DNA of 64,000 bases from a virus. Taxonomy: Duplodnaviria; Caudoviricetes. The notes under the pieces were generated by a model. It was not told where the DNA came from and ran no database searches. It worked only from the letters and a program-made list of their open reading frames with translations. Position numbers and translations under genes: made by a program. The DNA lies in IMG/VR virus record IMGVR_UViG_641201351_000001, positions 88,373 to 152,372 of that record. One strand, 5' to 3'. This document shows, piece after piece, positions 977-27,885 of the stretch. The stretch's first letter is position 1. Each line of letters opens with the position of its first letter.

Positions 977-1411
977 TCAAAACACTTCTCTTAATATCAC
1001 AAACTCAACTTCTCCAAAGCACAAATATAGCGAACTATTTTTATCATAAACTCCAAAAATTGGTTTGTATATTGAATATGATCGGTGCGCATAATCCTTT
1101 TCAGACTTTTCTTTTAAGTAATATCTAATCAAATCTTCATAATCTTCTATTTGTATAATGTCAAGAAGTTCTAATGTTATTCTTCTTTTGAAATCCTCCA
1201 CGCTTGCATGTTCTTTTAAAGCAAACATTCTTTTTTCTTTCCAGCGATTTAAAGCGTGTTTGTAATTTTTAAAATTCTCTTTGTATTTTGAATACGCTTT
1301 CTCAAAATCTTTGTAGTAAGTAATTTTGTGAGCATAATGCTTTAGAGAAATCATCGGGCTGTAGTGAGGTTGTGCAAAAAAGTATTTTTTGGCCTTTACT
1401 TCAAAAATCAT
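977..1411 (-). CDS. hypothetical protein ending EVF, paralog of 1424..1849
   Basis: shared EVKxKKYF, YEDLI, KPIxG, FGEVE motifs. Confidence 0.85.
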   Translation of the reverse strand: MIFEVKAKKYFFAQPHYSPMISLKHYAHKITYYKDFEKAYSKYKENFKNYKHALNRWKEKRMFALKEHASVEDFKRRITLELLDIIQIEDYEDLIRYYLKEKSEKDYAHRSYSIYKPIFGVYDKNSSLYLCFGEVEFVILREVF

Positions 1412-1423
1412 AATTAAACCCCT

Positions 1424-1849
1424 TCAAAACACTTCATGAATTTTCACATATTCAACTTCTCCGAAAAATACATAAGCTAGATTACTTTTATCGTGAAACC
1501 CCAAAATCGGTTTATGTATCAAAAAGAGATTTCTTTTAAACTTCCCATTCAAATATGAAGTTATCAAATCTTCGTAAGTTTCCATTGGAAACATATAAAG
1601 AACTTCTGATGTTCTTAAATTTTCAAAGTATTCTATAGGTTTTAATTCTTCCTCTAAAACAAACATTTTTATTCCCTCCCAACGATTAAATGCAACTTTG
1701 TAATTACGAAATTCTTTTTTGTAGGCTTCAAAAGCATTTTCAAAGGTTTTGTAATAGTAAATTTTGTAAGTATATCTCTTTAAGTGTATCTTTGGATTGT
1801 AGTAGGGTTTTACATAGAAATATTTTTTACCCTTGACCTCCAATGTCAT
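1424..1849 (-). CDS. hypothetical protein ending EVF, paralog of 977..1411
   Basis: GGAGGTG SD; promoter TTGCCT-17-TAGCCT at 1868-1896. Confidence 0.85.
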   Translation of the reverse strand: MTLEVKGKKYFYVKPYYNPKIHLKRYTYKIYYYKTFENAFEAYKKEFRNYKVAFNRWEGIKMFVLEEELKPIEYFENLRTSEVLYMFPMETYEDLITSYLNGKFKRNLFLIHKPILGFHDKSNLAYVFFGEVEYVKIHEVF

Positions 1850-2108
1850 GACTCACCTCCTAGCATCAGGCTAACACAAGGGGTGCTAAAAGGCAAGAAG
1901 GGCTTTGGTGTGGAAAAGGGTATTAAAATAGGGGGCCCAAAAATATGTGGATAGCGTTTACTTAGTTTTGGCAAAAATAAAAACAAAAAATAATTTCCTA
2001 GAAAATCTCTAGTGGAAAAATTTCAAAAACTTCTATATCTCCGAACAAAAGATTTCTCTATGTACTATTGGTCTAGTTTTCATTACAAACGGAATGTTTA
2101 TGTTCACC

Positions 2109-2555
2109 TCAAAAGTAAGGAAAATAGTCAGGGAAAAATATTAAGTCTACAAGTATTCTCTTCTTCGGATTATATCTATGTGTACTTTCGGCAAAAGACA
2201 ATATGATTGTATCAGGAACTAAACCTTTCCTATACGCAGATATTACCTTTTTGTGAATAAAAGGATGTGGGTTTTTAATAAATTCAAAAATGTTTTTGGA
2301 TTTTCTATAGTTAAGCCTGAAGTTATAGGGTGTAAAGGTAAAATATTGGTTTAGCATTAAAAACGCCTTAATACCAATATCTACAGGAATATCTGTACTT
2401 ACATACTTGTATCCGCTATATTTGTGGTCTTCCTTTAATCCGTATCCTTGAGGATTAAGAAATTCATTTACATCTTGAGCATACTTTTCTAAAATTTTCT
2501 TAAAGTGCGAACTTTTTACAATATAAAGTTTTGCGTAAGTGCTGCTTGCAACCAT
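2109..2555 (-). CDS. hypothetical protein (ends FPYF), leaderless
   Basis: promoter TTGACT-17-TAGGGT at 2562-2590. Confidence 0.8.
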   Translation of the reverse strand: MVASSTYAKLYIVKSSHFKKILEKYAQDVNEFLNPQGYGLKEDHKYSGYKYVSTDIPVDIGIKAFLMLNQYFTFTPYNFRLNYRKSKNIFEFIKNPHPFIHKKVISAYRKGLVPDTIILSFAESTHRYNPKKRILVDLIFFPDYFPYF

Positions 2556-2620
2556 GCTTGTACCCTATCACACACCAGGGGAATAGTCAAGGGGGGCTTA
2601 GCGTTTACTTAATTTTGGGT

Positions 2621-2648
2621 AAAAGAAAAACCTCCCCTTTCGGGGAGG
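2621..2648 (-). terminator. intrinsic terminator
   Basis: CCTCCCC-GAAA-GGGGAGG then TTTTTCTTTT on minus strand. Confidence 0.85.
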
Positions 2649-2663
2649 CTTGTATTCTTCTTG

Positions 2664-2894
2664 CTATTCAACCAAGATTTTCCTCACTTTACCATTCCTT
2701 TCCTCAACCCTAACCTTACCATATTTAGTATCCTCGTAGCCAATCACTTTCCATGTAGTATTCTTGCGGCAATCTTCACAATATTTAGGAGGACGGGTTT
2801 TGCTTTCGGTAACAAACTCCTTTTGGCACTTTTGGCACACAATCAAGACCTTCTTTACATGAACATTACGGACCTTCTTTTCGTTCTTGCCCAT
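2664..2894 (-). CDS. small zinc-ribbon protein
   Basis: CQKC...YCEDC; start re-set to ATG 2894 after GGAGGTG SD; promoter TTGACA-17-TATCTT at 2914-2942. Confidence 0.8.
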   Translation of the reverse strand: MGKNEKKVRNVHVKKVLIVCQKCQKEFVTESKTRPPKYCEDCRKNTTWKVIGYEDTKYGKVRVEERNGKVRKILVE

Positions 2895-3044
2895 CTTCTT
2901 CACCTCCACCCCCAAGATACCACAAAGAAAGATGATTGTCAAGGGGGGATTGAGAAGATTGACCTCGGTTGGGCTGGTTTTGCGTGAACTTCAGACTGCA
3001 AAGTTGCGAAGTTTGGAAGGGGATTGTTAAAAATAAACGCTTAA

Positions 3045-3452
3045 TCATAAATTGTCAGTTTCTTTATTTTCTTCTAGTTCCCTCAACTTTTTAGCATAAA
3101 ACCACTCTAAGAAGATGATAAAAAGTGTGTTAAATAGGAGATAAAGAACTAAGTCATTTGTATAAATCTTTTTTGTTATCATTTCTGTGGCAAAAAGAAA
3201 AATAAATTGAATTACAATGAAAGCTAATATTAAAATCCTTAAAAGGGGAATATCTTTGAAATCTGGATAAGTTTTCAAATAAGAGTCCTCAGCTTTTTTG
3301 CCAAAATTCATCATGAATATCGCAAACAAAATATAAAATTCCTTTTCGCTTAAAGCTAATAATTTTGCAACAATAAAAGAAAATGCGTTATAAATTAAAT
3401 AGAAAAACATTGACATTCTTATTGATTGTATTTGTGCTTCATGCTTGTTCAC
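3045..3452 (-). CDS. membrane protein, about 4 TM segments
   Basis: four hydrophobic stretches; GAGGTG SD. Confidence 0.75.
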   Translation of the reverse strand: MNKHEAQIQSIRMSMFFYLIYNAFSFIVAKLLALSEKEFYILFAIFMMNFGKKAEDSYLKTYPDFKDIPLLRILILAFIVIQFIFLFATEMITKKIYTNDLVLYLLFNTLFIIFLEWFYAKKLRELEENKETDNL

Positions 3453-3462
3453 TTTTCACCTC

Positions 3463-4008
3463 TCAGAAAGAAATGTTCTTTTTAACAAGGTAAGCGTTAG
3501 CGTACACTCTGAAAATATCTTCTCTTTCACCTTTAAACTCTACTTCTAACCTAAAAATTTTTATTGGCACAAAAAGATACGCTGGTATTCTTTGTAGAAT
3601 TTGCAAATCATTACATGCTTTAAAAAGCTCTTTAAAGGACTTAAAGAAAAATGCATGGTTTTCTACTCTTTTTAAATTTCTTGAAATTTCTAAAAAAAAC
3701 TCAGAATCAGCAGATCCTTTTACTGCAAGTGTTCTTGCTACACTAGCGGGATAAAGAAGCCAATATATGTCTTTCAAATCCACACTTTCTACCGAAACAA
3801 GTTTAAGATTTTTTAGTTTTAATATTTGCGGCCCTAACCCTTCATTTAGCATTTTAAAATCTTTTTCTATTTGAGAAAAATCATCTATGAAAACAACTTT
3901 GTTGCTAACGATTGAAGCCAATTTTTCAGACATTTTTTGAATATAGTCTTTTTCATTAAAGACTGCATATCGTTTATGTAAAACATCTAAGAATGGTGGT
4001 ACTTCCAT
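3463..4008 (-). CDS. hypothetical protein (ends ISF)
   Basis: SD; promoter TTGACA-17-TACACT at 4034-4062. Confidence 0.8.
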   Translation of the reverse strand: MEVPPFLDVLHKRYAVFNEKDYIQKMSEKLASIVSNKVVFIDDFSQIEKDFKMLNEGLGPQILKLKNLKLVSVESVDLKDIYWLLYPASVARTLAVKGSADSEFFLEISRNLKRVENHAFFFKSFKELFKACNDLQILQRIPAYLFVPIKIFRLEVEFKGEREDIFRVYANAYLVKKNISF

Positions 4009-4130
4009 TTAGGTTCACCTCCCCCCAAGAGGGAGTGTAACACAAGCCTAGGCGCTTGTCAAGAGCGCTTGATAAATGTGTATATATTTTGATAGCGTTT
4101 ATTTGTTTTATGACAAAACAAAAAAATTCC

Positions 4131-4673
4131 TTAAAATATCTCGTTAAGGCTATACAAATACATCTTTCCTAGCATTGCAGAAACCTCTATTTTTAGAGAG
4201 GTTTCTTCAGGTTTTGTATTTTCAAAGGTTATGTAATAATCGGGAATAAAGATTTGACCTTTTTTAAAATCAAAGATGTTGTCAATAGCGTAAAAGTATT
4301 TTTTGCTTACAACTTTAACTCTTATTTTGTCGCTATAAATTCCATTTATTCCATTTGCTGGAACAGCATAATCTGCTATGTAAAAAGCTATATCGTTTTT
4401 AAAAGTTTTTATTTTTCTTGGCGCAAATTTGTCAAGTAGCGATTCAAAAGGTGCGGATCTATAGTGATAAAGATTTTTAACAAATAAAGTTCCCAAATCA
4501 AGAATTGTGTCTATATCATATTTGTCTTCCTCAAAAATCATCATTGGAAGCCTTTTCTTTTCATTAAAGTCAAACTTTTTACCATTCTGAGTAATGTAGT
4601 ATCTGAAGATAACAAGAACTTCATCAGAAAATTTTTTCTCAAAAACTTCAGTATTTACGATGTTTCTAATCAT
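4131..4673 (-). CDS. hypothetical protein (ends EIF)
   Basis: TAATG coupling to the upstream gene, SD inside its last codons. Confidence 0.8.
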   Translation of the reverse strand: MIRNIVNTEVFEKKFSDEVLVIFRYYITQNGKKFDFNEKKRLPMMIFEEDKYDIDTILDLGTLFVKNLYHYRSAPFESLLDKFAPRKIKTFKNDIAFYIADYAVPANGINGIYSDKIRVKVVSKKYFYAIDNIFDFKKGQIFIPDYYITFENTKPEETSLKIEVSAMLGKMYLYSLNEIF

Positions 4674-5203
4674 TAAAACACCTCCTCTATTTTGTATTCA
4701 TACAAAACTCCAATTAATCCTTCTATCATTCCAGAAAGTTCATCTGTATCTTTCAAAAGTATTTTCCTTTGTGCAACAAATAAAGTATCGCCTTCTATTA
4801 CTTCTTTTAAATCTTTTATCTCTTCTATTTGAGAAGGCCTAAGATAAACAATAGACATTGTGTAGTCATCAATAACATGTTCGCTATAATCATCAATAAA
4901 AACCGAGAAATACTTTTTTTCAATAGCTTTGCTACAAACAACCTTTGTGCTGAAAGTCTTCAACAAATCTCTCTCAAGAGATAAACATGACAAGTTGTTG
5001 TAAAAATACTCAATTGATCTGTAAAAAGTTTTGTTGTCTACGAAATCAGAAATAATGAAAGATTTGTACAAAGAAAACTCTCCTACTATTTCGTCAGCAA
5101 AGCGATTGTTTTCGCTAGGATAATAGTCTAGTTCTAGATACGCTTTATATCTCTTCAAGATTTTAAAGGACTTTGACTCCAAGAAACCTTCTACTGCTTT
5201 CAT
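4673..5203 (-). CDS. hypothetical protein ending EEVF; family with 5965..6504 and 8461..8982
   Basis: shared KAYxExxYxP, FVAxRxxxL, IEGLxGxLYxYK; start re-set to ATG 5203. Confidence 0.85.
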   Translation of the reverse strand: MKAVEGFLESKSFKILKRYKAYLELDYYPSENNRFADEIVGEFSLYKSFIISDFVDNKTFYRSIEYFYNNLSCLSLERDLLKTFSTKVVCSKAIEKKYFSVFIDDYSEHVIDDYTMSIVYLRPSQIEEIKDLKEVIEGDTLFVAQRKILLKDTDELSGMIEGLIGVLYEYKIEEVF

Positions 5204-5246
5204 TCTAATCCCCCCCTTCTTAAAGACATAATCATAGCAATGAAAC

Positions 5247-5759
5247 TTAAAAAATCTCTTCACGATGCTTTACTCTATATATTCTTCCAACAAAACATTT
5301 TTCAATTAATTCTACCCTTTTAAACCATCTGCCTTCTCTAAATGACTCAACAACAGAATCAACAATAAGCAAGTAAACTGCAGGATAAAGCATTTCTAAA
5401 TCTGTTATTCTCTCTCTTATGTAATTCACTTCTGAAATCTTCATTCTATCGTAAACATAAGTTGTGTGAATTACTCTTTTGTTAGAAATAACCTTTTTCT
5501 CACTACCACTATGAGCTATAATATAGCAATCATACTCAGGGTCAAGAACTTGGTAAAAATAAATGTATTTGCGTCCTATCTTGTCAGTTGTTAGCTTAGA
5601 TATCTTTTTCAAGTATTCCTCTTTGTTCAAAATCTTCACTTCTCTAGATATGCCGCTATTAGAGAAAAAGTAGTTGGCATCTAAGATTTCTAAAAAAGGC
5701 AAAAAGTTTTTGAGGCTTTTGTAATCTTCTAGTTCTTTAATAATGCTTTCCCCCACCAT
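5247..5759 (-). CDS. hypothetical protein ending EIF; family with 7138..7653 and 7724..8254
   Basis: shared KEE, GRIYx[VI]K; promoter TTGACT-17-TAGCCT at 5777-5805. Confidence 0.85.
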   Translation of the reverse strand: MVGESIIKELEDYKSLKNFLPFLEILDANYFFSNSGISREVKILNKEEYLKKISKLTTDKIGRKYIYFYQVLDPEYDCYIIAHSGSEKKVISNKRVIHTTYVYDRMKISEVNYIRERITDLEMLYPAVYLLIVDSVVESFREGRWFKRVELIEKCFVGRIYRVKHREEIF

Positions 5760-5964
5760 GACACCTCCCCTCTTAAAGGCTACTGCTAAGGCCCTATAAA
5801 GTCAAGAAGAGAGAGGCAAGGCTTTATGAAGCACAAAAGCTAGGGGGGGGAAGATATATTTAGGATAGCGTTTACTTGTTTTTAACGAAACAAAAATCAA
5901 AAAGCTTCATTTGGAGTGTGGAAATGTCTATAAAACGGGGGACTATTTACTATGTCTTTAATCA

Positions 5965-6504
5965 TCAAAACACCTCCTCTATTTTGTATTCATATAAAAC
6001 TCCAGCCAATCCTTCTATCATTCCAGGAAAATCGCTAACATCATCAAGTAATATTTCTCTTTCAGCAACAAATAGTTGGTAGTTTCCTACTAGTTCTCTT
6101 AAGCTTTTTACTTCTTCTATTTGTGAAGGTTTGAGATATGAAACGACTATTGAGCTAACTTCATTGCTATAATCAACATATTCGTCAATAAAAAGCGAAT
6201 AATATTTTTTGGCAATTCTCTTGCCACTAATAACTTTCGTATCAAAAGTTTTAAATAAATCTCTTTCTAATGTTAAACCAGACATAACATTGTAGTAATA
6301 CTCAATGGCCTTGTAAAAGATTTTGTTGCTTACATAGTCAGAAATAATAAAAGCCTTACAACGAGAAAATTCTTCAACTATTTCGTCTGCAAAACGATTG
6401 CTATTGTTTGGATAGTAATTAAGTTCTAAGTAAGCTTTGTATATCTTTAATGCTTTAAAGTTAGCCGATTTTAAAAATTCCTCTAAAACTTTCACCTGCA
6501 TCAC
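5965..6504 (-). CDS. hypothetical protein ending EEVF, close paralog of 4673..5203
   Basis: near-identical C-terminus GMIEGLxGVLYEYKIEEVF. Confidence 0.85.
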   Translation of the reverse strand: MMQVKVLEEFLKSANFKALKIYKAYLELNYYPNNSNRFADEIVEEFSRCKAFIISDYVSNKIFYKAIEYYYNVMSGLTLERDLFKTFDTKVISGKRIAKKYYSLFIDEYVDYSNEVSSIVVSYLKPSQIEEVKSLRELVGNYQLFVAEREILLDDVSDFPGMIEGLAGVLYEYKIEEVF

Positions 6505-6512
6505 CTCCTTTC

Positions 6513-7001
6513 TCAGAACATGTAATCATAGGTCAATAAAAACCCCAGACCTAAAATATTGTGTGTTTCTTTCAATTTTCTAAAGCCTGCATTTAACACA
6601 AAAAACTCATCGTACTCCATAATAGGAAGAAACATAAAGTCTGTAAAATAATCTTCAATATGTGGCTTTACGAATGAGAAAATATTTTCCTCGTTTATTT
6701 CTTTAAATAAGATTTTTCCGTTTTCATCGTTAGTTACAAAAAATAGCTTTTCTTCATCGTAAAACTTAATATTTTTCACTTTTCTATCAGCGTCTTGATC
6801 TAAGGAAGCTTTTATTGCAGTATTTAAAAAATGTTCAAAATTTTTTCCTCCCAGATCAGTTTCGTATATGTGAGAAATCGTTGAAGCCACATCATTATCA
6901 AAATAATAGTATTTGATAGTTACTATTGAAAAGTGTCTTGCTTTAAACATTCCACTAATCTTCTTGATTTTTTCGTTTACTAAGCGAATGTATTCTTTCA
7001 T
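6513..7001 (-). CDS. hypothetical protein (ends YMF)
   Basis: start re-set to ATG 7001 after GAGGGGGTG; promoter TTGACC-17-TAAACT at 7021-7049. Confidence 0.75.
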   Translation of the reverse strand: MKEYIRLVNEKIKKISGMFKARHFSIVTIKYYYFDNDVASTISHIYETDLGGKNFEHFLNTAIKASLDQDADRKVKNIKFYDEEKLFFVTNDENGKILFKEINEENIFSFVKPHIEDYFTDFMFLPIMEYDEFFVLNAGFRKLKETHNILGLGFLLTYDYMF

Positions 7002-7137
7002 CTCTTCACCCCCTCGCCTTAGTTTAAAGGACAAAACGCCTTAGGTCAAGTAGCGTGCAAGCGCTCAGTTGTCTATATATAGAGGATAGCGTTTATCTAA
7101 CCTTTCACAAAAAAGAAAAAAATAAAAAACAATAATC

Positions 7138-7653
7138 TTAGAATACTTCTTTGCGATATTTGATCTTATATATTCGTCCTAAAGTTGACTCCTCAACTAT
7201 TTCTATTCTTTTTGTAAACATATTTTCTTTATAAGACGCAATCCTGTAATCAAGTACCAATAAGTAAACATTTGGATAAATGTTACTAACAAACTCTACT
7301 TCTCTTTGGAAGCTTTTTATTTTAATGGGAGAAGAATTATTAAATCTATCATATATGTAAGAAGGAAAACGCTTTCTAACATTAGATAATATATTGCTTT
7401 CTTCCCATTCGTGATAAACTAGATAGTATTTCGTTTCAGGGCGAAAAATTTGGTGGAAATATAAATACTTCCTGCCTTTTTTGTCAACTACTAGGCGAGA
7501 TAAAATTCTAATATATTCTTCTTTTTCTATCATTTTTATTTCATTAGAAACTTTCCACCCAGAACGAAAGTATTGTGATTTAATTATCTCAAGGAAAGGA
7601 AGAAAAGGTTTAATATCTTGAAAATCATTCAAGTCTTTTATTAGGTTTTTCAT
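7138..7653 (-). CDS. hypothetical protein ending EVF, paralog of 5247..5759
   Basis: FLPFLEI motif; promoter TTGACT-17-TAAGCT at 7678-7706. Confidence 0.85.
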   Translation of the reverse strand: MKNLIKDLNDFQDIKPFLPFLEIIKSQYFRSGWKVSNEIKMIEKEEYIRILSRLVVDKKGRKYLYFHQIFRPETKYYLVYHEWEESNILSNVRKRFPSYIYDRFNNSSPIKIKSFQREVEFVSNIYPNVYLLVLDYRIASYKENMFTKRIEIVEESTLGRIYKIKYRKEVF

Positions 7654-7723
7654 CTCTTTACCTCCCCTCCTCCCTAAAGCTTATACCTAAAGCGCCGTGG
7701 AGTCAAGGGAAGGCGCTTAACTC

Positions 7724-8254
7724 TTAAAAAACTTCTTTATGATGTTTAATTTTGTAAATTCGTCCAAATGTACATCTTTTAACGAAAGTTATTTCTTCTG
7801 TCAATTTGTTTTTCATATACAAGTCAATCTCAAAATCGTCAACTAAAAAGTAAATCAACTTGTCGCTTTTAAAATTCTCACTAGAAATTCTTAAAAGGAC
7901 TCTTCTAAACCTTTCTATCTCGTCATTGGTTATTCCATTAGAAAAAATATATGAGTAATGTCTACAAATACTAGGAATAACTTCAGTTTCCTCTCCAGTA
8001 TATTCCAATAAACAACAAGATTTTGGGTAAATGATTTTGTAGAAGAAGGTATACCTATTGTCTTCCTTCTCGCTTATTAACTCAGATATTGTCTGTAAGC
8101 ATTCTTCTTTTTCAATGATTTCTATATCTGGACATAAGTTTTCCTTTAAAACAAAATATTTTCCTTCAAAAACTTCTGCAAATGAAAGAATAAGCTTAAA
8201 TTTAGAAAAGTCGTCAAAATCTTTAACCAAATCTTTTGCCTCTTCTTTCCTCAT
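7724..8254 (-). CDS. hypothetical protein ending EVF, paralog of 7138..7653
   Basis: GRIYKIK; promoter TTGACC-17-TAAGCT at 8306-8334. Confidence 0.85.
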   Translation of the reverse strand: MRKEEAKDLVKDFDDFSKFKLILSFAEVFEGKYFVLKENLCPDIEIIEKEECLQTISELISEKEDNRYTFFYKIIYPKSCCLLEYTGEETEVIPSICRHYSYIFSNGITNDEIERFRRVLLRISSENFKSDKLIYFLVDDFEIDLYMKNKLTEEITFVKRCTFGRIYKIKHHKEVF

Positions 8255-8460
8255 CCTTACTCGCCCCCTCCTTACTTGCCCCTCCTTGACCTATGACACA
8301 ATAAAAGCTTACCCCTAAAGCCCCATAAGGTCAAGGAGGAGGATGAAGCTTTAGGAGAAGGTAAGCCCAAGGCTTTAGGGGGACATAAAACTGGCGAGAA
8401 GACATTTATTTAGGATAGCGTTTACTTATTTTTGACGAAACAAAAAATCAAAAAGCTTCA

Positions 8461-8982
8461 TTAGAAAACCTCATTAAGCTTATAAGTATACAAAGTGCCT
8501 ACTAACCCCTCTATTATTCCTGAACATTCATCAACATCATCTAGAAATACTTTTCTTTTTGCAACAAATAAAATATTAACATCTAGCAAGTTTTTCACAT
8601 CTTTTATTTCCGTTATTTGCTGTGGTTTAAAATAAGTAACATATACACCTACACTTTTTTCAATAGCTTTATAATCGTCAATTAAGATTGAATAACACTC
8701 TTTGTTTATTTTTTCCTCACCCAAAAATCTTACATCAAATTTCTTTGGAGCACCTCTTTCAACAGGAACAGATAAGAATCTATTGTAAAAATGTCCAATG
8801 CGCTTATAAAAAACTTGGTATTTCTCAGAATAATCACAAGTAATAAGTGTTTTATAAAATTCAAAACTAGAAACTACTTCTTTGGCAAAAATATTTCTTT
8901 CGCTAGGATGATAAGTAACTTCCATATAAGCCTTCTTTTTGCTAAGAATTTTAAATAGCCCTGCCTTTAAAAATCTTTCCAT
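8461..8982 (-). CDS. hypothetical protein ending EVF, paralog of 5965..6504
   Basis: promoter TTGACC-17-TAACCT at 9006-9034. Confidence 0.85.
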   Translation of the reverse strand: MERFLKAGLFKILSKKKAYMEVTYHPSERNIFAKEVVSSFEFYKTLITCDYSEKYQVFYKRIGHFYNRFLSVPVERGAPKKFDVRFLGEEKINKECYSILIDDYKAIEKSVGVYVTYFKPQQITEIKDVKNLLDVNILFVAKRKVFLDDVDECSGIIEGLVGTLYTYKLNEVF

Positions 8983-19674: not shown

Positions 19675-19768
19675 TTTGCACCTCCTCTTGCAGAGGGGAT
19701 TATACAACGGGACAGGACGCATGTCAAGGCCTCAGGAGTTAATTAAAAGACATTTAATTTCACTAGAG

Positions 19769-20272
19769 TTAAAAAGGATCATTTCTCGCTATACGAATTG
19801 TCATTTCTAGATTTGTTTTTACATCTGAATCGTAGTTGTCTTTTATTGACTCGTAGATTAAGTAAAACGAAAAAGAAATCTCATAAAAGCTAGGAATTTC
19901 TTTCATAGTTTTCTTAACAATCTTTTTCAAGGTTGACTTAATATTTAGCGAACTGAAATTCTCAATGTTGTAGTGAACAGGCTCAACCTGATAGAAATCT
20001 CTTTCTTGTTGACCTGACAACAAATCTTTAGCATAAAAGTAAACAGAATAAAAATGATAAGCATTAAAATGCAAGTTTGCTATTTCTTCTTTTTGTTTCA
20101 AAGACTTAAAGATATTTAGTTCTTTTATTATCCTTTTGTGAAGCAGTCTAAAAGCGCTGATAAATTCAGAAAAGTTTGAAGTGTTTAGATGATAGTTCTC
20201 AACAGATGTTTCTTTGTCTTTTCTAGCGAAAGACAACTTTGCGCTATTTACTTTCGCATAGCTAGTCAACAC
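19769..20272 (-). CDS. hypothetical protein ending DPF
   Basis: start re-set to GTG after AGGAGGTG; promoter TTGACA-17-TATCCT at 20295-20323. Confidence 0.8.
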   Translation of the reverse strand: MLTSYAKVNSAKLSFARKDKETSVENYHLNTSNFSEFISAFRLLHKRIIKELNIFKSLKQKEEIANLHFNAYHFYSVYFYAKDLLSGQQERDFYQVEPVHYNIENFSSLNIKSTLKKIVKKTMKEIPSFYEISFSFYLIYESIKDNYDSDVKTNLEMTIRIARNDPF

Positions 20273-20399
20273 AACGCACCTCCTCTCAAGCTCTAGGATA
20301 AGCGCTATAGGACGCTTTGTCAAGAGTCTAGTGTCGTCAACTAAGCGAAGCGAAATAAGGCTTTATCTTGCGTGAAAATCTTATTTAAACTTTAATTCG

Positions 20400-20918
20400 C
20401 TAAAACACGCTTAAAAACTTGTACTTTAAGGATGTGTTAAAAGAAAACACTAACGAAAATTCATCTATGTCAACATAAAGATCCTTTCCTGAAGTCAAAA
20501 TGAAATTGTTAAGGTTTAGTTTAAGCGCTTCTTTTATCGCTAGCGAAGAAAAACTTTTAAGAATTTCTTTGCTTTCTTCTAGTTTGCTTAGTTTGTGATT
20601 TTGCTTTAAGAAGACTTTGAAATTTGGATCCTCATAAAATGCAGAAACTTTAAAATCGTAATGCTCAATATTAAAAAGTTCTAAGGCGTTGAAAAAATGT
20701 TTTCTAAGTTCTAAAGCTTTTGTGCTATTAATAAACAGCAGATCTTCTTTATCTTTTCTAAATTTCTTTTTGTTTGGCGTAAATATTAATTTTTCTTTTC
20801 GAACTAATTTTCTAGAATAGCTAATTCCATAACTGACTTCTTTTTCGATGTAAAAATAAAGGCTAACTCTAGTGATTTTGTAAGGCATTTCTTCTTTGAC
20901 AAAAAGCTCAAACTTCAT
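20400..20918 (-). CDS. hypothetical protein ending SVF, paralog of 19180..19674
   Basis: start re-set after AGGAGGTGG. Confidence 0.8.
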   Translation of the reverse strand: MKFELFVKEEMPYKITRVSLYFYIEKEVSYGISYSRKLVRKEKLIFTPNKKKFRKDKEDLLFINSTKALELRKHFFNALELFNIEHYDFKVSAFYEDPNFKVFLKQNHKLSKLEESKEILKSFSSLAIKEALKLNLNNFILTSGKDLYVDIDEFSLVFSFNTSLKYKFLSVF

Positions 20919-20955
20919 CTTCCACCTCCTTAGGAATGTCCTTCCTGGTGGTTCT

Positions 20956-21447
20956 CTAGAAAGGAAAATTGCTAACAACTTCTACTGAACACGATATGGA
21001 CTGTTTTTTGTAAATTTCCTTATTTTTAAAATAAGCTGCATAAATCAACAAATTAAATTGCGCCTTTGAAAAAAATCCACAGGTTTTTAAAGCTTTATAT
21101 AAGAGATTTTCAATGCTGTTTGTTATATCAAGGTCAAAAACTTCCTCTAGTTTGTAAGATTCTCCAGAGATATATTCTCCAAAGAGGTCTAAGTCATCAA
21201 TGAGGAGTCCTTTCTCTATTGGTAAATAGATAAGGTCAGAAAAAGAGATGGCATTTATCTCTAAATTATTTCCTTTAGCAAAAAGATATTCATCTTTTAC
21301 TTTGTTAATATGGTTTTTAAGCTCCATTAAAAATTCTTCATAGTTGCGAAAACTTTTGGCTTCTTCTAAAGCAAAATCTTTTTTTATCTTCTTAGAATAT
21401 TCTGTTTTGACATAAGCGATTTTGAATTCTGTGAAGGCTAACCTCAC
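20956..21447 (-). CDS. hypothetical protein ending FPF, paralog of 18718..19167
   Basis: promoter TTGACA-17-TATAGT at 21475-21503. Confidence 0.8.
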   Translation of the reverse strand: MRLAFTEFKIAYVKTEYSKKIKKDFALEEAKSFRNYEEFLMELKNHINKVKDEYLFAKGNNLEINAISFSDLIYLPIEKGLLIDDLDLFGEYISGESYKLEEVFDLDITNSIENLLYKALKTCGFFSKAQFNLLIYAAYFKNKEIYKKQSISCSVEVVSNFPF

Positions 21448-21625
21448 GCTACACACCTCCCCTCTGCTACCCCAACTATAAGCCTCACAAGGCCCTATGT
21501 CAAGGGGGGGTTAGTGTGTTTTTACTAGAAGAAGCACGGCGAGGCTTTTATTGTGAGTGAAATCTTGTTTAAACATTTTTGGGTGGTACACTATTATCCA
21601 AGTCTGGAAGGACAAACAAACAACG

Positions 21626-22141
21626 CTAGAAAACCTCATTACCCTTCTTGTATTCAAACTTCACTACGAAGAGTTTTTCTGTGCTTTCAACTTCTTTGTT
21701 TGCTAGTAGTCCCTGTAGAAGCGTAGGAAACTTGATGATAGTTGCATTAAAGCGAAAGTAGTAAGTAATGCTCACCATTCCTTCTCTTAAAGCTTTTATT
21801 GTGATAGATTTTCCAAATAGGTTTATCATTGAAGCGAATTCGTTTTCATTAAAGTTTGCAATTATGTTGTTTTCTTTACAAATGTAAATCGGCAGAGAAA
21901 CTAGTTTGTAAGGTGAGAACATTAAGTAGGAGAACTCAAAAGATGAGTCTACTTTTACTAGTCCAGACTTTGAAGATAGGTCTTTTTTAAATTCCTCTAA
22001 GTAGTATTTGACTTCTTCAAAAAAGTTGTAAAAATCAAAATAATCTTTGTATAGTGATTGTTTTAATGCTTTTTTATTTTTTGCCTCCTTGTAGAGAATT
22101 GTGATAAAATCTAAGGAGTAAGGAAGAAAGCTCTCAAACAT
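21626..22141 (-). CDS. hypothetical protein ending EVF
   Basis: PYSL motif; promoter TTGACC-18-TATTAT at 22163-22192. Confidence 0.8.
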   Translation of the reverse strand: MFESFLPYSLDFITILYKEAKNKKALKQSLYKDYFDFYNFFEEVKYYLEEFKKDLSSKSGLVKVDSSFEFSYLMFSPYKLVSLPIYICKENNIIANFNENEFASMINLFGKSITIKALREGMVSITYYFRFNATIIKFPTLLQGLLANKEVESTEKLFVVKFEYKKGNEVF

Positions 22142-22188
22142 GTCTTTATCCTCTCGCTTGCGATAATATCGCCTAAATCATAGGCAGG

Positions 22189-22773
22189 TCAAGAGGTTGG
22201 TACACTATTATAGGAATCTGGAAGATACTCACTAACAGCGAAAGAATAAAGAAATACTATCTCTAGATAAGGATAAAGAAGTTCAAAGTATTTGTATCTT
22301 CCTCTAGCAAACGATGCTACTATTTCGACACCTTCAAGATTTTCGTTTAATTCTTCTTCTGTATTATTCAAGAAGTTTTCTTTTTCTTTAATTAAAGCGT
22401 TATAGACATTTTCAACTGTTGTGTTTCTTCCTAGGTTTACTTCTTTGATTTCAGGAATGTAGCTCAAGGTCTTTTCTTTCATGTTCTTTATTTGTTTGTG
22501 ATAAATCTTGACGAAAGAAAGCGTTAAATAGAGGTCAAGAGAGAAGTTTGCGTTTAGAACTTTGTCTAAAGATAAAGTTTTTTTGATGAATGTCTTTATG
22601 ATAAAAGACAGCTTTTCTTCACAAAATTCTTTTTTGCGAGTATCTAATTCAACATAGATCAAGGTTCTTTTTGATGTATTTCTTATTTCCAGCTTTGATA
22701 GCTTTCTTATTTCCAGAGAAGAGCCGCTATCAAAGTGTATTGTTGCTTTTTCTAGTGTGATGTTCGTCTTCAT
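22189..22773 (-). CDS. hypothetical protein whose 3' end reads through motif B (LPDSYNSVPTS)
   Basis: similar to 23793..24305 (EEK...FIKxT, LExV). Confidence 0.8.
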   Translation of the reverse strand: MKTNITLEKATIHFDSGSSLEIRKLSKLEIRNTSKRTLIYVELDTRKKEFCEEKLSFIIKTFIKKTLSLDKVLNANFSLDLYLTLSFVKIYHKQIKNMKEKTLSYIPEIKEVNLGRNTTVENVYNALIKEKENFLNNTEEELNENLEGVEIVASFARGRYKYFELLYPYLEIVFLYSFAVSEYLPDSYNSVPTS

Positions 22774-22784
22774 GTTTCTTTACC

Positions 22785-23282
22785 TCAGAATAAGACATTA
22801 AACTCAAAAGAAACTTCTATGCGCAAATCTTGTGAAATAGTCGCTTTATTAGTTTTTAACTTTGCGAAAGATAAAAAGAAGACATTGAGCGTTTTTTCTT
22901 CTTTAATAGCATATTTATAGCGTTTATTAATTTCACGCTGCATTAGACTAAAAATCTTTTGTTCACTAAATTCTTCTAAGCTAATAAACTTCTTTCCTAA
23001 GCGCTTTCTTAGCTCTTTGTAAGGCATATCGAAATAATAATCGCTTGATAGCAAAGATACGACTGCAAAATGTCCTAATTTGAAAAAAGGCGAATTAAAG
23101 TATCTTTTTAAAATCTCAAAACTCCTTGAGAAATTAGTAAACGCTTGATCAAAGAATTCGCTTCTTTCTTCTTCAAAAAACTCAGTTTTCCTAGTTGAAA
23201 GAAGGCTATCGTTAATCAAATATTCTTTTATAAACCTCAAACTTTTAGGTTTTTGCAGCGAAAAAAGCTCTTCGATTTTCAT
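22785..23282 (-). CDS. hypothetical protein ending VLF, paralog of 24317..24823
   Basis: MxIExL, KRx...FxxGxFxVxSL, EEFSExK, LKT shared. Confidence 0.85.
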   Translation of the reverse strand: MKIEELFSLQKPKSLRFIKEYLINDSLLSTRKTEFFEEERSEFFDQAFTNFSRSFEILKRYFNSPFFKLGHFAVVSLLSSDYYFDMPYKELRKRLGKKFISLEEFSEQKIFSLMQREINKRYKYAIKEEKTLNVFFLSFAKLKTNKATISQDLRIEVSFEFNVLF

Positions 23283-23290
23283 GCTCTCAC

Positions 23291-23761
23291 CTAAAAGACT
23301 TCTTTTCTTTCTAGAGTAGCTTCTACTTCTAGAAAGACTTTATCAAGGTTTCTTGTTAGATAGCCTAGTTCTATGAAGATTACTATTGCAGTAATTTCTT
23401 TTTCGTTCCTAAACGCTTCATTGTAAATTTGACTTATGCTTCCTTCAATAAATTTTAGGACTGACTTTTTATTAACGAAAGAAGTATTTTTAACGCCCAA
23501 ATCTTCAAATTTAGGTGTTCCGTTTTTTGTATTTGTGATTAGTGTATAGTGTATTTTTAAAATGTCTTGCACAACATCGCCTTCAGAATTTTTTGTTTGC
23601 TGATAGTATTTTGAAATGAAACCTTTAAGGTACTTATAAAAGTCTTTAGCTTTTTCTTCTTTAAGTATCTTTTTAAACGAAAAATTATTTTCTTCATCTT
23701 TTGAGTTTTTAAAGTATTCAAAGGCAAACTTCACTTTCACGAATTCAAAAGGCGCTAGCAT
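23291..23761 (-). CDS. hypothetical protein ending EVF, leaderless
   Basis: promoter TTGACA-17-TAGCAT at 23768-23796. Confidence 0.8.
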   Translation of the reverse strand: MLAPFEFVKVKFAFEYFKNSKDEENNFSFKKILKEEKAKDFYKYLKGFISKYYQQTKNSEGDVVQDILKIHYTLITNTKNGTPKFEDLGVKNTSFVNKKSVLKFIEGSISQIYNEAFRNEKEITAIVIFIELGYLTRNLDKVFLEVEATLERKEVF

Positions 23762-23792
23762 AGCTTCATGCTAGCACGACAAGTCAATCGTG

Positions 23793-24305
23793 TCAACTTG
23801 GTACACTATTACTAAAGTCTGGAAGATGTACTATGTCGTAGTAGTATACAACCTCTAGAGATGCAACATGATCATCCTTATAAGGTGATCCTTTAGTGAA
23901 GATTATTGAAATGATAATCTGATCCTTTTTGTCTATGTTTTTTAGCTTTAACAGCTTTGTTAGCAATTCGTTTCTTTCTTTGAGGATTGTCTTAAGCACT
24001 TCTTCTGGTTTTATATCGTATCCAAGAGGTTTTTCTTTAGTATCAAGGTCTTCTTTCCTCATGTTGTGATTGACTGCTAAATAGAAATCTTCGTCTTCAT
24101 ATACTTCAAGAAGTTTTTCAATTTCTATTGTTTGTTTTATAAACTTAAGCATTAGTTGAATTGCTTTTTCTTCTAGTTCTTTTTCTTCGTGATCTTTGTT
24201 GAAGGTAAATTTGTATTTATTTTCTGCTGCTTTTAAAAGTCCTTTTGACGCAGCAAAAGACTCCTGTAAGTAAAAAAGTGCGATTTCGCTGAGCTTCAGT
24301 TTCAT
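23793..24305 (-). CDS. hypothetical protein ending in motif B peptide (LPDFSNSVPS)
   Basis: start re-set after AAAGGAG. Confidence 0.8.
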   Translation of the reverse strand: MKLKLSEIALFYLQESFAASKGLLKAAENKYKFTFNKDHEEKELEEKAIQLMLKFIKQTIEIEKLLEVYEDEDFYLAVNHNMRKEDLDTKEKPLGYDIKPEEVLKTILKERNELLTKLLKLKNIDKKDQIIISIIFTKGSPYKDDHVASLEVVYYYDIVHLPDFSNSVPS

Positions 24306-24316
24306 CTCTTCTCCTT

Positions 24317-24823
24317 TCAAAAAACGCCGTGCAAAGAGTAGTGCATTTTCAAGAACAATTTTTTTACTATCAAAGATGTTTCTGTCTTTAGCGCAACAAA
24401 GAACATAGATTCTAATGATAGGTTTTCGTTATTTAACAAAGCTTCTCTGTATTTCTTGTAGAAGCATTCTTCTGCTAAACGAGAAAATTTTTCTTCGCTA
24501 AATTCTTCAATTCTATAAACATTTTCAGGAAATCTATCTAGCAGACTTTTTTCTCTGCCATAAATCTCAAAATATTCTTCAGAAAAACTTCCTAAAGAAA
24601 AAACTACAAAATAGCCTTTGTGAAAATACTTTGACAACACAAACCTTTTGACGATGTTTAACTGCTTCAAAAATACAGCATTAAAGCTTTCAATTTCTTC
24701 TTCTGGAAAATTGTAGTAATATTTCTGCTTTCTAGCTTTAACAAATTTTTTCTTCACGAAGTGCTCAGTCGACACTTCTACGAAAAATATTTTGTGTGTT
24801 TTAATCAAGTCTTCAATGCGCAT
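24317..24823 (-). CDS. hypothetical protein ending GVF, paralog of 22785..23282
   Basis: GAGGTG SD; similarity. Confidence 0.85.
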   Translation of the reverse strand: MRIEDLIKTHKIFFVEVSTEHFVKKKFVKARKQKYYYNFPEEEIESFNAVFLKQLNIVKRFVLSKYFHKGYFVVFSLGSFSEEYFEIYGREKSLLDRFPENVYRIEEFSEEKFSRLAEECFYKKYREALLNNENLSLESMFFVALKTETSLIVKKLFLKMHYSLHGVF

Positions 24824-24829
24824 AACACC

Positions 24830-25348
24830 TCAAAAGCTAGGAAGAACAATGTCGTTTATTTTTATCGTGTAAGGAGGCTTTAAAGAAAAGATGTGTTCTA
24901 TTTCTAAAACCCAAACTTTTTCGCTTTGTTTTATTTCAAAAACTATTCTTGGCGCTATAGATATCGTGTAATCGTTAAAGTTTGTAATATTTTTTCTTAT
25001 TTCATTTAGTGTTTTTTCTGTGCTTTCAATCATTTCATAAGCTTTCTCTTTGAGAAAAAACGAAAGCTTCTTTTTCTTGTCTGACAAAATTTCGTCTTGT
25101 TTAATGTTTTTTATGTCCTCGAAGTAAAACCTTGTTTTTCCTAAAACATAGCCTCTATAATTGACGAATATGTAAATAGAGATTGTCTTTACATCCTGCT
25201 TTAGCGATTTCAATACAAAGCTATCAAGCGTTTTAATAAGTTTGTCTTTTTCATTCACAGAAAAAACAACATTTGATGCATTCGTGTAGCTAAAGAAGGG
25301 TTTGTATATTCCTTTCTTTGTGATTAAGCAAAGCCTTTCTAATCTCAC
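24830..25348 (-). CDS. hypothetical protein ending PSF
   Basis: GGAGGAG SD; promoter TTGACA-17-TATGAT at 25369-25397. Confidence 0.8.
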   Translation of the reverse strand: MRLERLCLITKKGIYKPFFSYTNASNVVFSVNEKDKLIKTLDSFVLKSLKQDVKTISIYIFVNYRGYVLGKTRFYFEDIKNIKQDEILSDKKKKLSFFLKEKAYEMIESTEKTLNEIRKNITNFNDYTISIAPRIVFEIKQSEKVWVLEIEHIFSLKPPYTIKINDIVLPSF

Positions 25349-25479
25349 TTTTCTCCTCCACAGAAGAAATCATAGAACACAAACCTAAGGCTGTCAAGCG
25401 TTGGTACACTATTAATAAGTCTGGAAGATGTAAATGACTGACACTTGAAGACTAGGTGTCTATATGCTAGTATGTAGCT

Positions 25480-26016
25480 ATGCATCCTCAGGAAGGTTGG
25501 CTTTTTGATGAGTTTGTCTTCTTGAGAAGAGCGTTTTCTCATTGTTCATATGTTGACAGCAATAACATAGTTCGTGATTATCAGGAAGAAATTGAAAGCT
25601 TAGAAAAACTAGAGGCTATTGTTGAATTAGCAAAGGAAAAATTAAAAGAATATCATAAAGAATTAAAGGAGCTAATTAGGTTTGGATTAAGAATAGAAGA
25701 AAATTTTCATTTAATCGCTATAGCAAACTTTTATAAGAGGTCATTAAGACACAAGTACGATAGAAAGTTAACGCTTGACGAAGTAATGTCTTTTTCTATT
25801 AGAGATGCGATAGACGAAACTATATCGCACTTCTTGAGATTTTGTGAAATTGAAGATTTATCTTTGATTTTGAGCTTGAAGTTTCCTTATTTGTCTGTTT
25901 ACAAGCCTATGTTAATTTCTAGAGCTTATGATTGTTTTATGATGATTCCTTATACTTCACAGCTTTTTCACATTAGCGCTGAATTTCTCGTTGATAAAAA
26001 TTTGCTTGTTTTCTAA
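25480..26016 (+). CDS. hypothetical protein ending LVF, inverted relative to the array, leaderless
   Basis: promoter TTGAAG-17-TAGTAT at 25445-25473. Confidence 0.8.
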   Translation: MHPQEGWLFDEFVFLRRAFSHCSYVDSNNIVRDYQEEIESLEKLEAIVELAKEKLKEYHKELKELIRFGLRIEENFHLIAIANFYKRSLRHKYDRKLTLDEVMSFSIRDAIDETISHFLRFCEIEDLSLILSLKFPYLSVYKPMLISRAYDCFMMIPYTSQLFHISAEFLVDKNLLVF

Positions 26017-26660
26017 AAAAATTCTTCTATTTCAGCGATTAAAGAATAATCGAACAAATTTGGTTCGCTTAAAATCTTCACTATCTCTCTAGTGTGTTTG
26101 TCAAATATTTTAGTATCTATTTGTTTTGTGTTTGTCGAATAAAGATCTGATGAAATTTCTTCATCGAAAACATTTAATCGAAAATCAAACTTGAACCGAA
26201 AGGAAATTTTTGACATTAAGCCAAAATTTTTAAGAAAATACATCGTTGCTTTTTCTAACTCTTTTTTTAGAGATAAGGAAGGAAGTTCAGAAAGCTTGTA
26301 TTCTTTTTTCAAGTCAAATCCTTTGTCTTCTCCATAGAAGGCTAAAGCGCTAAATTCTAAAGATTCAAAAGTAACGACATTTAATTTGTTGTTGCTGCTT
26401 TGATTTCTTACTACTCGTTTTATATTATTTAATTCACGATTAAACATCTTAGCTCTATCTTTAGCGAGATTAAAGAAGTTTTTTATTTCTTCAAACACAT
26501 CACAGTAGTTTGGAAAAAAGTAGCTAAATTTTACTTCGCTAAACTCGCAAGAATTTTTTGCAGGCAACTTCTTATCTGCTTTCTTTTCTAGGTAGCTTAT
26601 GTAGACGAAGCCTCTCGTGAAATTTAGTATGTCAAAGGCGCTGAAGGACACTTTAAACAC
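26013..26660 (-). CDS. hypothetical protein ending EEFF
   Basis: promoter TTGGCA-17-TATACT at 26678-26706. Confidence 0.8.
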   Translation of the reverse strand: MFKVSFSAFDILNFTRGFVYISYLEKKADKKLPAKNSCEFSEVKFSYFFPNYCDVFEEIKNFFNLAKDRAKMFNRELNNIKRVVRNQSSNNKLNVVTFESLEFSALAFYGEDKGFDLKKEYKLSELPSLSLKKELEKATMYFLKNFGLMSKISFRFKFDFRLNVFDEEISSDLYSTNTKQIDTKIFDKHTREIVKILSEPNLFDYSLIAEIEEFF

Positions 26661-26782
26661 CTCCCTCCTACCTCTCTAGTATAGAGGCTAGGCGCAAAGC
26701 TGCCAAGCCTTTATTTTTAGGGTAAGCCTTATTTAAAAGTTTAAACATTTGCTAGATAAAAATCTTTTATGTTCATTATCTC

Positions 26783-27352
26783 TTAAACGCTAGGATGAGG
26801 AGTTGGTACACTATTGTATAAGTCTGGAAGGTTGAATAAATGCTGCCCAAGATCTAAGACTTTGTATTTCAGTTTAAAGACAGAACTGTAGGGAGTTTTG
26901 TGTCTTGATCTTTCGTGAGAAGATAAGCTAACAACAAGATCAAATCTAGTTAAAGGAATTCCTTTTCTTAGACTAAAGAATTCAATTAGTTCTTCTATTG
27001 AATCCTCGATGAAGAAATAAAACGCATTTTTTATTCTCTTTTCATTTGGCATTACTAGCCTCGCAAATTGAATTTGCTTAGACATTTCTAAATCTAGCTT
27101 GCATTCTTTGTTTTTTCCTAGTGAATAGACATTTATGCTTTTTGAGATCGTTAGGTCAAAGTCTTTCTTAATTATTGCTTTTGACAATACTTTTTCTATA
27201 AGCCTCTCTAAAGAGTTTTTATTTTTCGCTGATATTTCTGCTAAATAATGAAACTTAAACTCTTCAAGGTTCTTTTCATTGAAATACTCGTAGTTTATTT
27301 CGATTTGATTAAGAAAAAAGGTTTGCTTGTTGATTTTGATAAGTTCTTTCAT
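26783..27352 (-). CDS. hypothetical protein ending in motif B peptide (LPDLYNSVPT...)
   Basis: 189-aa ORF. Confidence 0.75.
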   Translation of the reverse strand: MKELIKINKQTFFLNQIEINYEYFNEKNLEEFKFHYLAEISAKNKNSLERLIEKVLSKAIIKKDFDLTISKSINVYSLGKNKECKLDLEMSKQIQFARLVMPNEKRIKNAFYFFIEDSIEELIEFFSLRKGIPLTRFDLVVSLSSHERSRHKTPYSSVFKLKYKVLDLGQHLFNLPDLYNSVPTPHPSV

Positions 27353-27354
27353 CT

Positions 27355-27885
27355 TCAGATCTCAATTTTTTTTCTTTCAAAATACACTAAAAACCAAATG
27401 ACATACTTTTCAGGAAAAGGTATTGTTTTATTTTTAAAGCTTGCGACAATTCTTTGCGCAAAAGATATCTTCAAGGTCTTGTTTTCGTATATGCAGTCTT
27501 TAAACATGCTATTTTCGATTATCTTTTCTATTCTTTCAGAAATCATTTTTGATAGGTCTACTTCGCTGACATCTTCAATGAATTCTTTGTTTGAACCTAG
27601 AAAATTTGTTAAATTTTTTATTCTCTTTTTCTTTTGTCCTTGTACTTCAATTTCAACATCATTAGCGATGACGACATCTAAATTCTCTTTTTTGATTTCT
27701 TTGAATGTTTTAGCGAGAAATTTTTTTGCAGCTTCAAAGTCTTCTGAAACAAACTTTCTTTGGTTGAATAATTCGTTTGTAAGGCCGCTAAAATCAATTC
27801 TTCTATAAATGCTAACTGCACAATTTTTCATTAAAAATCTTTGTTCGCCTAAGTCTTTGTTATAAAACAAAAGCTCTTTTCTCAT
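27355..27885 (-). CDS. hypothetical protein (ends IEI)
   Basis: start re-set after AGAGGAGGT. Confidence 0.75.
   Translation of the reverse strand: MRKELLFYNKDLGEQRFLMKNCAVSIYRRIDFSGLTNELFNQRKFVSEDFEAAKKFLAKTFKEIKKENLDVVIANDVEIEVQGQKKKRIKNLTNFLGSNKEFIEDVSEVDLSKMISERIEKIIENSMFKDCIYENKTLKISFAQRIVASFKNKTIPFPEKYVIWFLVYFERKKIEI

Follow-up and report, generated by a model that had tools for sequence, protein, structure and literature searches.

The host-takeover module of phage SPO1 (genes 37-60) and the early clusters of T4-like phages (the "plastic periphery") are densely packed with small genes of unknown function, organized in many short units with strong host-sigma-type promoters of their own, and their content varies between related phages. 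We know of no single fold or C-terminal hallmark shared by the products of these clusters. The MGF families of African swine fever virus (ASFV) and the poxvirus Bcl-2-like proteins have many members that kept their fold while losing sequence similarity, are gained and lost between strains, and are presumed to play a role towards the host. The poxvirus K3L accordions consist of recent and nearly identical copies whose number grows and shrinks within passages. Here we describe an array of about 44 small leftward genes, located at positions 270-29633 (minus strand) of a 64,000-nucleotide stretch of phage DNA, hereafter the window.

The window is the final 64 kb (88373-152372) of a 152,372-bp virus record (IMG/VR record IMGVR_UViG_641201351_000001). 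Its megablast matches to TMA (92-94% identity) and YS40_Isch (85%) assign it to the YS40/TMA group, which comprises large myoviruses of Thermus thermophilus, and the annotation of YS40_Isch ties the genes of its array region to YS40_091 through YS40_138. The window phage (W) was compared with three relatives: TMA, YS40_Isch (Isch) and G001, a complete 157-kb IMG/VR genome. Open reading frames (ORFs) of the window are called W_n, where n is the lower coordinate of the ORF. The G+C content is about 31% across the whole window. Between 270 and 29633 the minus strand carries all substantial ORFs, save those at 25480-26016 and 28392-29102. The median length of the array proteins is 173 amino acids (aa), and the very uniform sizes noted in a preliminary description of this DNA are confirmed: 38 of the 44 proteins measure 130-200 aa, versus 26% of the other ORFs.

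On balance, we favour the explanation that the array stems from an old expansion of one small domain and constitutes a host-takeover set. An alpha/beta domain of approximately 150-190 aa with the topology bb-a-bb-a-bb would have expanded specifically in the lineage of YS40-like Thermus phages. Its last strand would lead to the conserved end [polar]-[E/D]-[V/I/L]-Phe (the tag), and its copies would have diverged beyond sequence recognition into some 30 families, which related phages would still be gaining, losing and shuffling by recombination. Leftward transcription would start from about 22 -35/-10 promoters of the host sigma-A type, each serving a unit of one to four genes. The unmodified host RNA polymerase would presumably produce these proteins early, just after injection, and each member might then act as a small binding module directed against a different host process or defence. 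A role as putative early host-takeover or anti-defence binders is the most likely function of the proteins, and we give it about an even chance of being right.

Compared to the SPO1 and T4-like clusters, the array is alike in its dense small genes, short promoter units and variable content. It differs in that 24 of 30 independent families, each BLAST family being counted once, end in Phe, and in that at least ten families fit one structural model. With the poxvirus K3L accordion it shares tandem paralogs and a copy number that differs between close relatives, but the paralogs are only 27-60% identical and their synonymous sites are saturated. The array resembles the ASFV MGF families and poxvirus Bcl-2-like proteins in the number of members per genome, in a fold that would be kept beyond sequence similarity, in gain and loss between strains, and in a role towards the host that is presumed. 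Here, however, the carrier is a bacteriophage of a thermophile, the predicted fold is without an analogue in the PDB by Foldseek, and the C-terminal motif is strict.

The C-terminal Phe and the predicted fold

Phe is the last residue in 33 of the 44 array ORFs versus 10 of 125 elsewhere in the genome (Fisher p=4.7e-17), its share of residues overall being 6.7%. The strict end [ED][VILP]F occurs in 19/44 array ORFs versus 2/121 in the rest of the genome, a set of ORFs of which 9/121 end in F. The F-ending families follow the consensus [E/D](-2)-[V/L/I](-1)-F(0), with a hydrophobic residue at -1 in 83% and a charged residue at -2 in 75% of them (E or D in 16/24). At positions -12 to -4 hydrophobic residues alternate as in a beta-strand, in agreement with the earlier observation that most members end in an alternating strand followed by the tag. 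Ends that depart from E/D-V still finish on F (NISF, PYF, YMF, SLF, GVF, PSF), and the orthologs in TMA, YS40_Isch and G001 retain the tag with conservative swaps. Among the 19 strict tags all four E/D codons (GAA, GAG, GAT, GAC), ten codons at -1 (GTG, GTT, GTA, GTC and others), both Phe codons (TTT, TTC) and all three stops are used. This diversity of codons and stops indicates a signal at the protein level. Tagged ends are found both at genes directly abutted by their neighbour and at genes with 100-200 nt between them and the next one.

For structure prediction, an alignment was built of 20 sequences from ten BLAST-distinct families in the second half of the array. Its 12 window genes lie at 16431-25348 on the minus strand (W_16431, 17050, 17597, 18138, 18718, 19180, 19769, 20400, 20956, 21626, 23291 and 24830). 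The resulting AlphaFold model of W_23291 (23291-23761, minus strand; 156 aa, apparently leaderless) has a predicted local distance difference test score (pLDDT) of 81.2 and a predicted template modelling score (pTM) of 0.76; all five models score at least 69.8, and no residue has a pLDDT below 50. The modelled topology is bb-a-bb-a-bb, with strands b1 at residues 5-18 and b2 at 27-36, helix a1 at 41-59, strands b3 at 65-77 and b4 at 83-93, helix a2 at 98-118, and strands b5 at 123-135 and b6 at 141-152, after which comes the KEVF tail.

When this model was compared with the PDB by Foldseek, no match reached E<=1e-3; the best had E=0.015, and template modelling (TM) scores were at most 0.39. 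The fold therefore appears to be new by this comparison of a predicted model. By contrast, Foldseek against the BFVD gave 13 matches with E<=1e-3, with TM 0.38-0.65 and 10-22% identity. They come from four accession series of unnamed models, apparently the array proteins of YS40, TMA and YS40_Isch. Five of the accessions listed are spaced by +2, +4, +2 and +4, with lengths of 163, 158, 149, 167 and 194 aa, and would fit YS40_114, 116, 120, 122 and 126, corresponding to W_15244, 16431, 18718, 19769 and 22189. Three further accessions (spacing +19 and +4; 140, 177 and 185 aa) would fit TMA_091, 110 and 114. The matches fitting YS40_126 and TMA_091 lie just outside the 13 (E=3.2e-3 and 5.4e-3). 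Should the mapping hold, the predicted fold would reach the family {14159,14705,15244} and, more weakly, {22189,23793} and {977,1424}, none of which contributed to the alignment. A large part of the array thus probably shares one predicted fold.

Several results weigh against a common origin and a common role. The fold comes from one AlphaFold run on an alignment that presupposes homology, and family A, {4673,5965,8461}, the sole family of the first half that was folded, gave an unusable pLDDT of 31.6 on its own (nine sequences). The weakest BFVD links have TM of about 0.3, and the identity of the BFVD matches was deduced from accession spacing and length. By sequence, the array resolves into 28-32 families with no merging. 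Searches of family hidden Markov models (HMMs) against sequences across families gave nothing convincing (best E=5.6e-4 in a 145-protein database), and among family pairs the best hhalign match over a long stretch had a probability of 31.5%. When the last 6 aa were removed, 31 of 32 families remained single in iterative HMM searches, and the profile of the ten-family alignment did not tell the other array families apart from 43 control proteins. The aggregate of forward versus reversed comparisons over 378 pairs shows a tiny shift (mean score 13.7 versus 13.1, p=0.001), and alignments of at least 80 columns arise in 1.9% of the pairs versus 0% when reversed. Finally, isoelectric points range from 4.8 to 9.8, and the array proteins hence have no uniform DNA-mimic character. 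Two apparent links were discarded. An hhalign match of 36.8% covers 11 columns and corresponds to an NSVP tail encoded by a DNA motif, and the sole merger in the iterative searches, of the families of W_22785 and W_4673, has an hhalign probability of 0.4%.

The idea that all members might represent one ancestral fold is upheld in part. One confident model accounts for at least ten families and probably more, with 13 matches among viral models, but family A failed and sequence methods link none of the families. In particular, the all-vs-all HMM comparison proposed in the preliminary description found no profile-profile similarity joining families, while the proposed structure comparison gave the ten-family model and its viral matches on the one hand and the failure of family A on the other.

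The Phe end itself could have a different cause. Unrelated families may each have gained the same [E/D]-hydrophobic-Phe-COOH signal, which would be read by one common receptor, such as a protease or unfoldase clearing early proteins, a host hub with an acidic-hydrophobic-Phe pocket, or a pair of phage proteins encoded in the middle of the array. This pair forms an insert that does not belong to the families (9203-11951, minus strand) and consists of a MoxR-like AAA+ ATPase (10908-11951) and a 562-aa protein (9203-10891) that combines an HExxH motif and a VWA-like DUF2201 domain with a long low-complexity stretch rich in Q/N, to which DNA repeats at 10100-10221 correspond. Both proteins are without the tag and belong to one promoter unit, with its own promoter at 12015; distant relatives of the ATPase are found in 116 phage records. 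The position of this pair would suit a convergent signal, as would the stop directly after F in 33 of the 44 ORFs and the lack of detectable sequence homology between families once the tag is removed. We nevertheless regard it as unlikely, since the cross-family alignment yields a confident fold to which other array proteins are structurally similar, no receptor has emerged, and some variants keep residues past the tag.

Natural variants of this kind are W_17050 (KTKF-RRTFPYV) and W_23793 (DIV-HLPDFSNSVPS; the YS40_Isch and G001 orthologs end DIL/DVL). Four metagenome relatives of family A (P0003-P0006) also have six residues past the tag (EEVF-WWLENW), and, compared with W, they have a different stop and a different overlapping start of the following gene. 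The persistence of extended variants indicates that a free Phe carboxylate is not strictly required. Most likely, the Phe end is above all a structural feature, with which the chain contributes its final core residue to the predicted fold, rather than a free-end signal. There is a small chance that it works as an address label on a common scaffold, carried by approximately 35 putative early proteins and recognized by one reader (the MoxR-type AAA+/HExxH-VWA pair or a host factor). If true, the phage could dock, assemble or clear its whole early set at once, by a tag-and-reader system on a new fold.

Paralog families and their evolution in related phages

When the 124 window ORFs with a length of 60 aa or more were compared all against all by BLASTP, 14 paralog pairs in eight families emerged, at 24-60% identity. 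These are the eight families named in the preliminary description, including the one it considered probable, {22189,23793}. All are on the minus strand. W_977 (977-1411) and W_1424 (1424-1849) are 47% identical, end in REVF and HEVF, and correspond to a single copy in each of the three relatives. Within 4673-8982, family A (42-60% identity) is interleaved with family B, {5247,7138,7724} (24-41%), and with family C (W_6513); family D (W_4131) lies just downstream. The members of {14159,14705,15244} (14159-15735; 27-43%) end in KEVI, REVI and KGVF. This family carries a "glycosyltransferase" label in databases (YS40_114, TMA_111 and phrog_17351; also locus L001 15302-15793), which we rejected: W_14159 has no Pfam family, and W_15244 has only a chance-level match to RtcB (E=0.041). 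It looks like an ordinary tagged member of the array.

The remaining pairs are {18718,20956} (X, 37% identity), {19180,20400} (Y, 32%), {22785,24317} (29%) and {22189,23793} (28%, E=1e-6). Their coordinates agree with the two block repeats proposed earlier. At 18718-21456, W_20956 followed by W_20400 faces W_19180 followed by W_18718, that is X'-Y' versus Y-X in swapped order. At 22189-24823, W_24317 followed by W_23793, which overlap by 4 nt, faces W_22785 followed by W_22189. Adjacent co-duplicated members combine an acidic and a basic protein. A looser group with P-[YF] near the N-terminus, also suggested from inspection, corresponds to a weak enrichment (9/17 versus 23/125, p=0.003).

Array genes evolve faster at the protein level than the remainder of the window. 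For 30 array orthologs in G001, the median identity is 0.75, the nonsynonymous rate (dN) 0.135 and its ratio to the synonymous rate (dS), omega, 0.197. The respective values for a comparison set of 30 orthologs at window positions >=30000 are 0.92, 0.036 and 0.067 (p of about 4e-6 to 8e-6), with no difference in dS. The array set excludes seven rows: the ATPase, the deaminase, the VWA protein and a membrane protein, together with one overlapping ORF and two ORFs on the plus strand. The proposed rapid diversification is therefore supported. At the same time, the median ortholog dN/dS of 0.20 indicates that the array genes are real; their Shine-Dalgarno (SD) or leaderless starts sit behind promoters. 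Most members, at 0.04-0.4, are under purifying selection, and some are highly conserved (W_12090, 96% identity, omega 0.04; W_29070, 96%, omega 0.06).

Such conservation would also be expected of a single superfamily that serves the phage itself, as an oligomeric scaffold, as thermostabilising chaperone-like factors or as RNA/DNA-binding regulators, in which diverged subunits would be tolerated. The acidic and basic neighbours would suit hetero-oligomers of this kind. However, whole families are dispensable in relatives, and no match to nucleic-acid-binding or chaperone families was found, which makes this reading rather improbable in our judgement.

In the comparison across relatives that had been proposed, the gene content of the array differs among the four genomes in both copy number and order. 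Examples of copy numbers in W/TMA/Isch/G001 are 2/1/1/1, 3/2/2/2, 2/1/1/0 and 2/2/1/0. TMA has one X and two Y genes, YS40_Isch one of each, and G001 none. The order of families A to D is A-B-B-C-A-B-A-D in W, B-C-A-B-A-D in YS40_Isch and G001, and B-C'-A'-B-C-A-D in TMA. TMA is without the counterparts of W_977, 2109, 4673, 5247, 7724, 14705 and 20956; G001 is without the four X/Y genes and W_22189, 5965, 7724, 14705, 2109 and 977. W_2109 is present only in the window genome, and the relatives hold members missing from W. Content and order are thus not invariant among related phages, and no tagged protein could be assigned to a known housekeeping family, so that neither of the two observations named beforehand as refuting the preliminary interpretation was made. 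We read the array as an old and rapidly evolving multigene superfamily that is specific to this lineage and still gains and loses members.

The identity of W_5965 to its TMA copy is 99%; for W_4673, the YS40_Isch and G001 copies reach 93-95%. Judged by such identities, part of the extra copies of W are divergent alleles that are single-copy in relatives. Along the array, dS varies from 0.05 to 1.7, which suggests recombination between lineages. The arrays of TMA and YS40_Isch also contain IS-type transposase genes (L001 26651-28673; L002 25026-26492), at different sites and accompanied in TMA by a resolvase-like gene; they are absent from the window.

The preliminary description spoke of a gene accordion and proposed dN/dS among the paralogs as a check. 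A true accordion would imply recent tandem amplification under ongoing selection, and the tandem or near-tandem paralogs and the copy number of W, the highest of the four for most families, might be read in that way. Yet synonymous sites are saturated in all 14 pairs (proportion of synonymous differences, pS, 0.63-0.80), and there are no near-identical copies. This shows that the duplications are old. With some of the extra copies being alleles that are single in other genomes, a recent accordion is very unlikely.

Promoters, upstream motifs and gene ends

The pattern TTGAC[ACT]-N16-18-TAnnnT has 25 matches on the coding strand of the 30 kb and 2 on the other strand, compared to 2.45 +/- 1.55 expected from 200 first-order Markov simulations, and in 21 of the 25 the spacer is exactly 17 nt. 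Generic scans for promoters and for terminators showed no excess compared with shuffled sequence (promoter-like sites 65 versus 58.9 and 63 versus 51.2), and only the strict TTGAC-17-TAnnnT pattern is enriched. A clear example is TTGACA-17-TATGAT at 25369-25397 (minus strand). The other -35 elements start at 23796, 22192, 21503, 20323, 19727, 17591, 16942, 16370, 15782, 13671, 12015, 9034, 8334, 7706, 7049, 5805, 4062, 2942, 2590, 913 and 136, all on the minus strand. Since 22 of the sites are intergenic and serve about 44 genes, the units hold one to four genes each. The self-promoted units of the preliminary description are therefore real as units, but there is not one promoter per gene. In the whole genome, 30 of 42 minus-strand matches lie at 80-120 kb, and the sites are kept in all four genomes.

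At five promoters (those of W_270, 2109, 16431, 17050 and 23291) an ATG lies 7 nt past the -10 element, and these genes look leaderless; the remaining units have GGAGG-type leaders. In a transcription study of phiYS40, -10/-35 promoters were reportedly assigned to early genes. For the array, too, early expression would follow from its promoters. Middle and late transcripts of phiYS40 are mostly leaderless, according to a review (PMC3594737).

Two DNA motifs accompany the promoters, and both are conserved in all four genomes. Motif 1, AAATAAGTAAACGCTA(TCCTAAATATAT), also written AAATAAGTAAACGCTATCCTAAATATAT (example at 8416-8431, minus strand), has about ten copies at 934-15969, in the first half of the array. 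It lies approximately 40-95 nt upstream of visible -35 elements, has a T-rich stretch before it, and is restricted to one strand of the genome at 80-110 kb; a regulator might bind there, or the motif might mark a boundary. The duplicated intergenic DNA reported earlier (5854-5903 versus 8404-8453, 88% identity) is genuine, but it represents one pair out of the about ten copies of this conserved motif rather than a simple duplication. Motif 2, CCAGACTTnnnTAATAGTGTACCA, also written CCAGACTTnnnTAATAGTGTACCAAC (example at 21584-21607, minus strand), has six to seven copies at 16942-26832 and is found directly 5' of the -35 element at promoters 16942, 22192, 23796 and 25397. Where it extends over gene ends, it is translated: W_22189, W_23793 and W_26783 read on into it and end in LPDxxNSVP(T/S). 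In the YS40_Isch and G001 orthologs of W_23793 and W_26783 the reading frame closes sooner, with ...YYDIL/YYDVL and ...DLPDL.

Where genes are tightly coupled, the codons for E-V in the tag also serve as the SD of the next gene (AAGGAGGTGATTTAAGTG at 14159 and 14705, GAGGAGGTGTTTTAATG at 4673). A nucleotide signal at gene ends (SD GAGGTG, T-run, stop context) is nonetheless barely credible as the origin of the Phe end, since many tagged genes have 70-200 nt of intergenic DNA behind them and use non-SD codons (GAAGTGTTT at 977, GAAGTATTC at 7138), codons and stops are diverse, an SD leaves the terminal F unexplained, and other penultimate residues are also followed by F.

Distribution, neighbouring genes and significance

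By sequence, no tagged protein has a family match in Pfam, NCBIfam, PADLOC or PDB. The best NCBIfam hits have E 4.5e-4 to 8.5e-4, with one member each, and the best PADLOC hit has 8.6e-4; the ten-family alignment has 0 matches to the PDB at E<=1, and the best ESM Atlas score is 0.87, below the 0.9 level for a lead. The nine families tested against PHROG each match a PHROG of their own end to end (E 1e-71 to 1e-104; phrog_24400, 20841, 17563, 17351, 25253, 21922, 20408, 20373 and 35078). Eight of these are annotated as "unknown function" and phrog_17351 as glycosyltransferase, and the PHROG library keeps the families separate. Relatives are rare: family A has seven among 5.8e9 proteins and three representatives among 1.84e9, W_12090 is found by tblastn in only three phage records, and an IMG/VR scan with W_23291 found nothing. 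Several metagenome contigs of about 158 kb carry array genes. P0015, which is closely related to W_17050, has been assigned to an archaeal (Aenigmatarchaeota) metagenome-assembled genome; its 32.9-kb contig is probably a mis-binned phage contig. In the 140 kb covered of the 178.5-kb Thermus phage phiLo, 9 of 150 ORFs end in F, none with the tag. We found no account of the families or the tag in the literature; the primary genome and transcription papers, which lay outside this search, may mention paralogs.

At the upstream end of the array lies a dCMP/cytidine-deaminase-like protein (27899-28330, minus strand) with a HAE...PCxxC motif. It is the only one of the 44 array proteins matched by Pfam (25.4 bits, cut-off 25), is without the tag and stands outside the superfamily; the annotation of phiLo_100 describes it as similar to the TMA ortholog of this protein. 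The gap that separates the array (W_29070) from the next gene cluster holds a 91-bp tandem repeat (29705-30024) of about 3.5 copies with 76-78% matches, which could be iterons or a regulatory array.

If our explanation is correct, roughly a quarter of the ORFs of the phage (44/169) and 19% of its DNA would stem from one domain, for which these searches gave neither an analogue among solved structures nor relatives beyond the lineage, and approximately 40 "hypothetical proteins" would become a single tractable superfamily. The members are small and probably thermostable and hence suited to structural study, and the Phe end offers a simple handle for distinguishing structure from signal. The four genomes represent a natural experiment on the birth and death of putative early phage genes. 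If the members inhibit the defences of Thermus, which include several CRISPR types and Argonaute, thermostable inhibitors would become available from the array.

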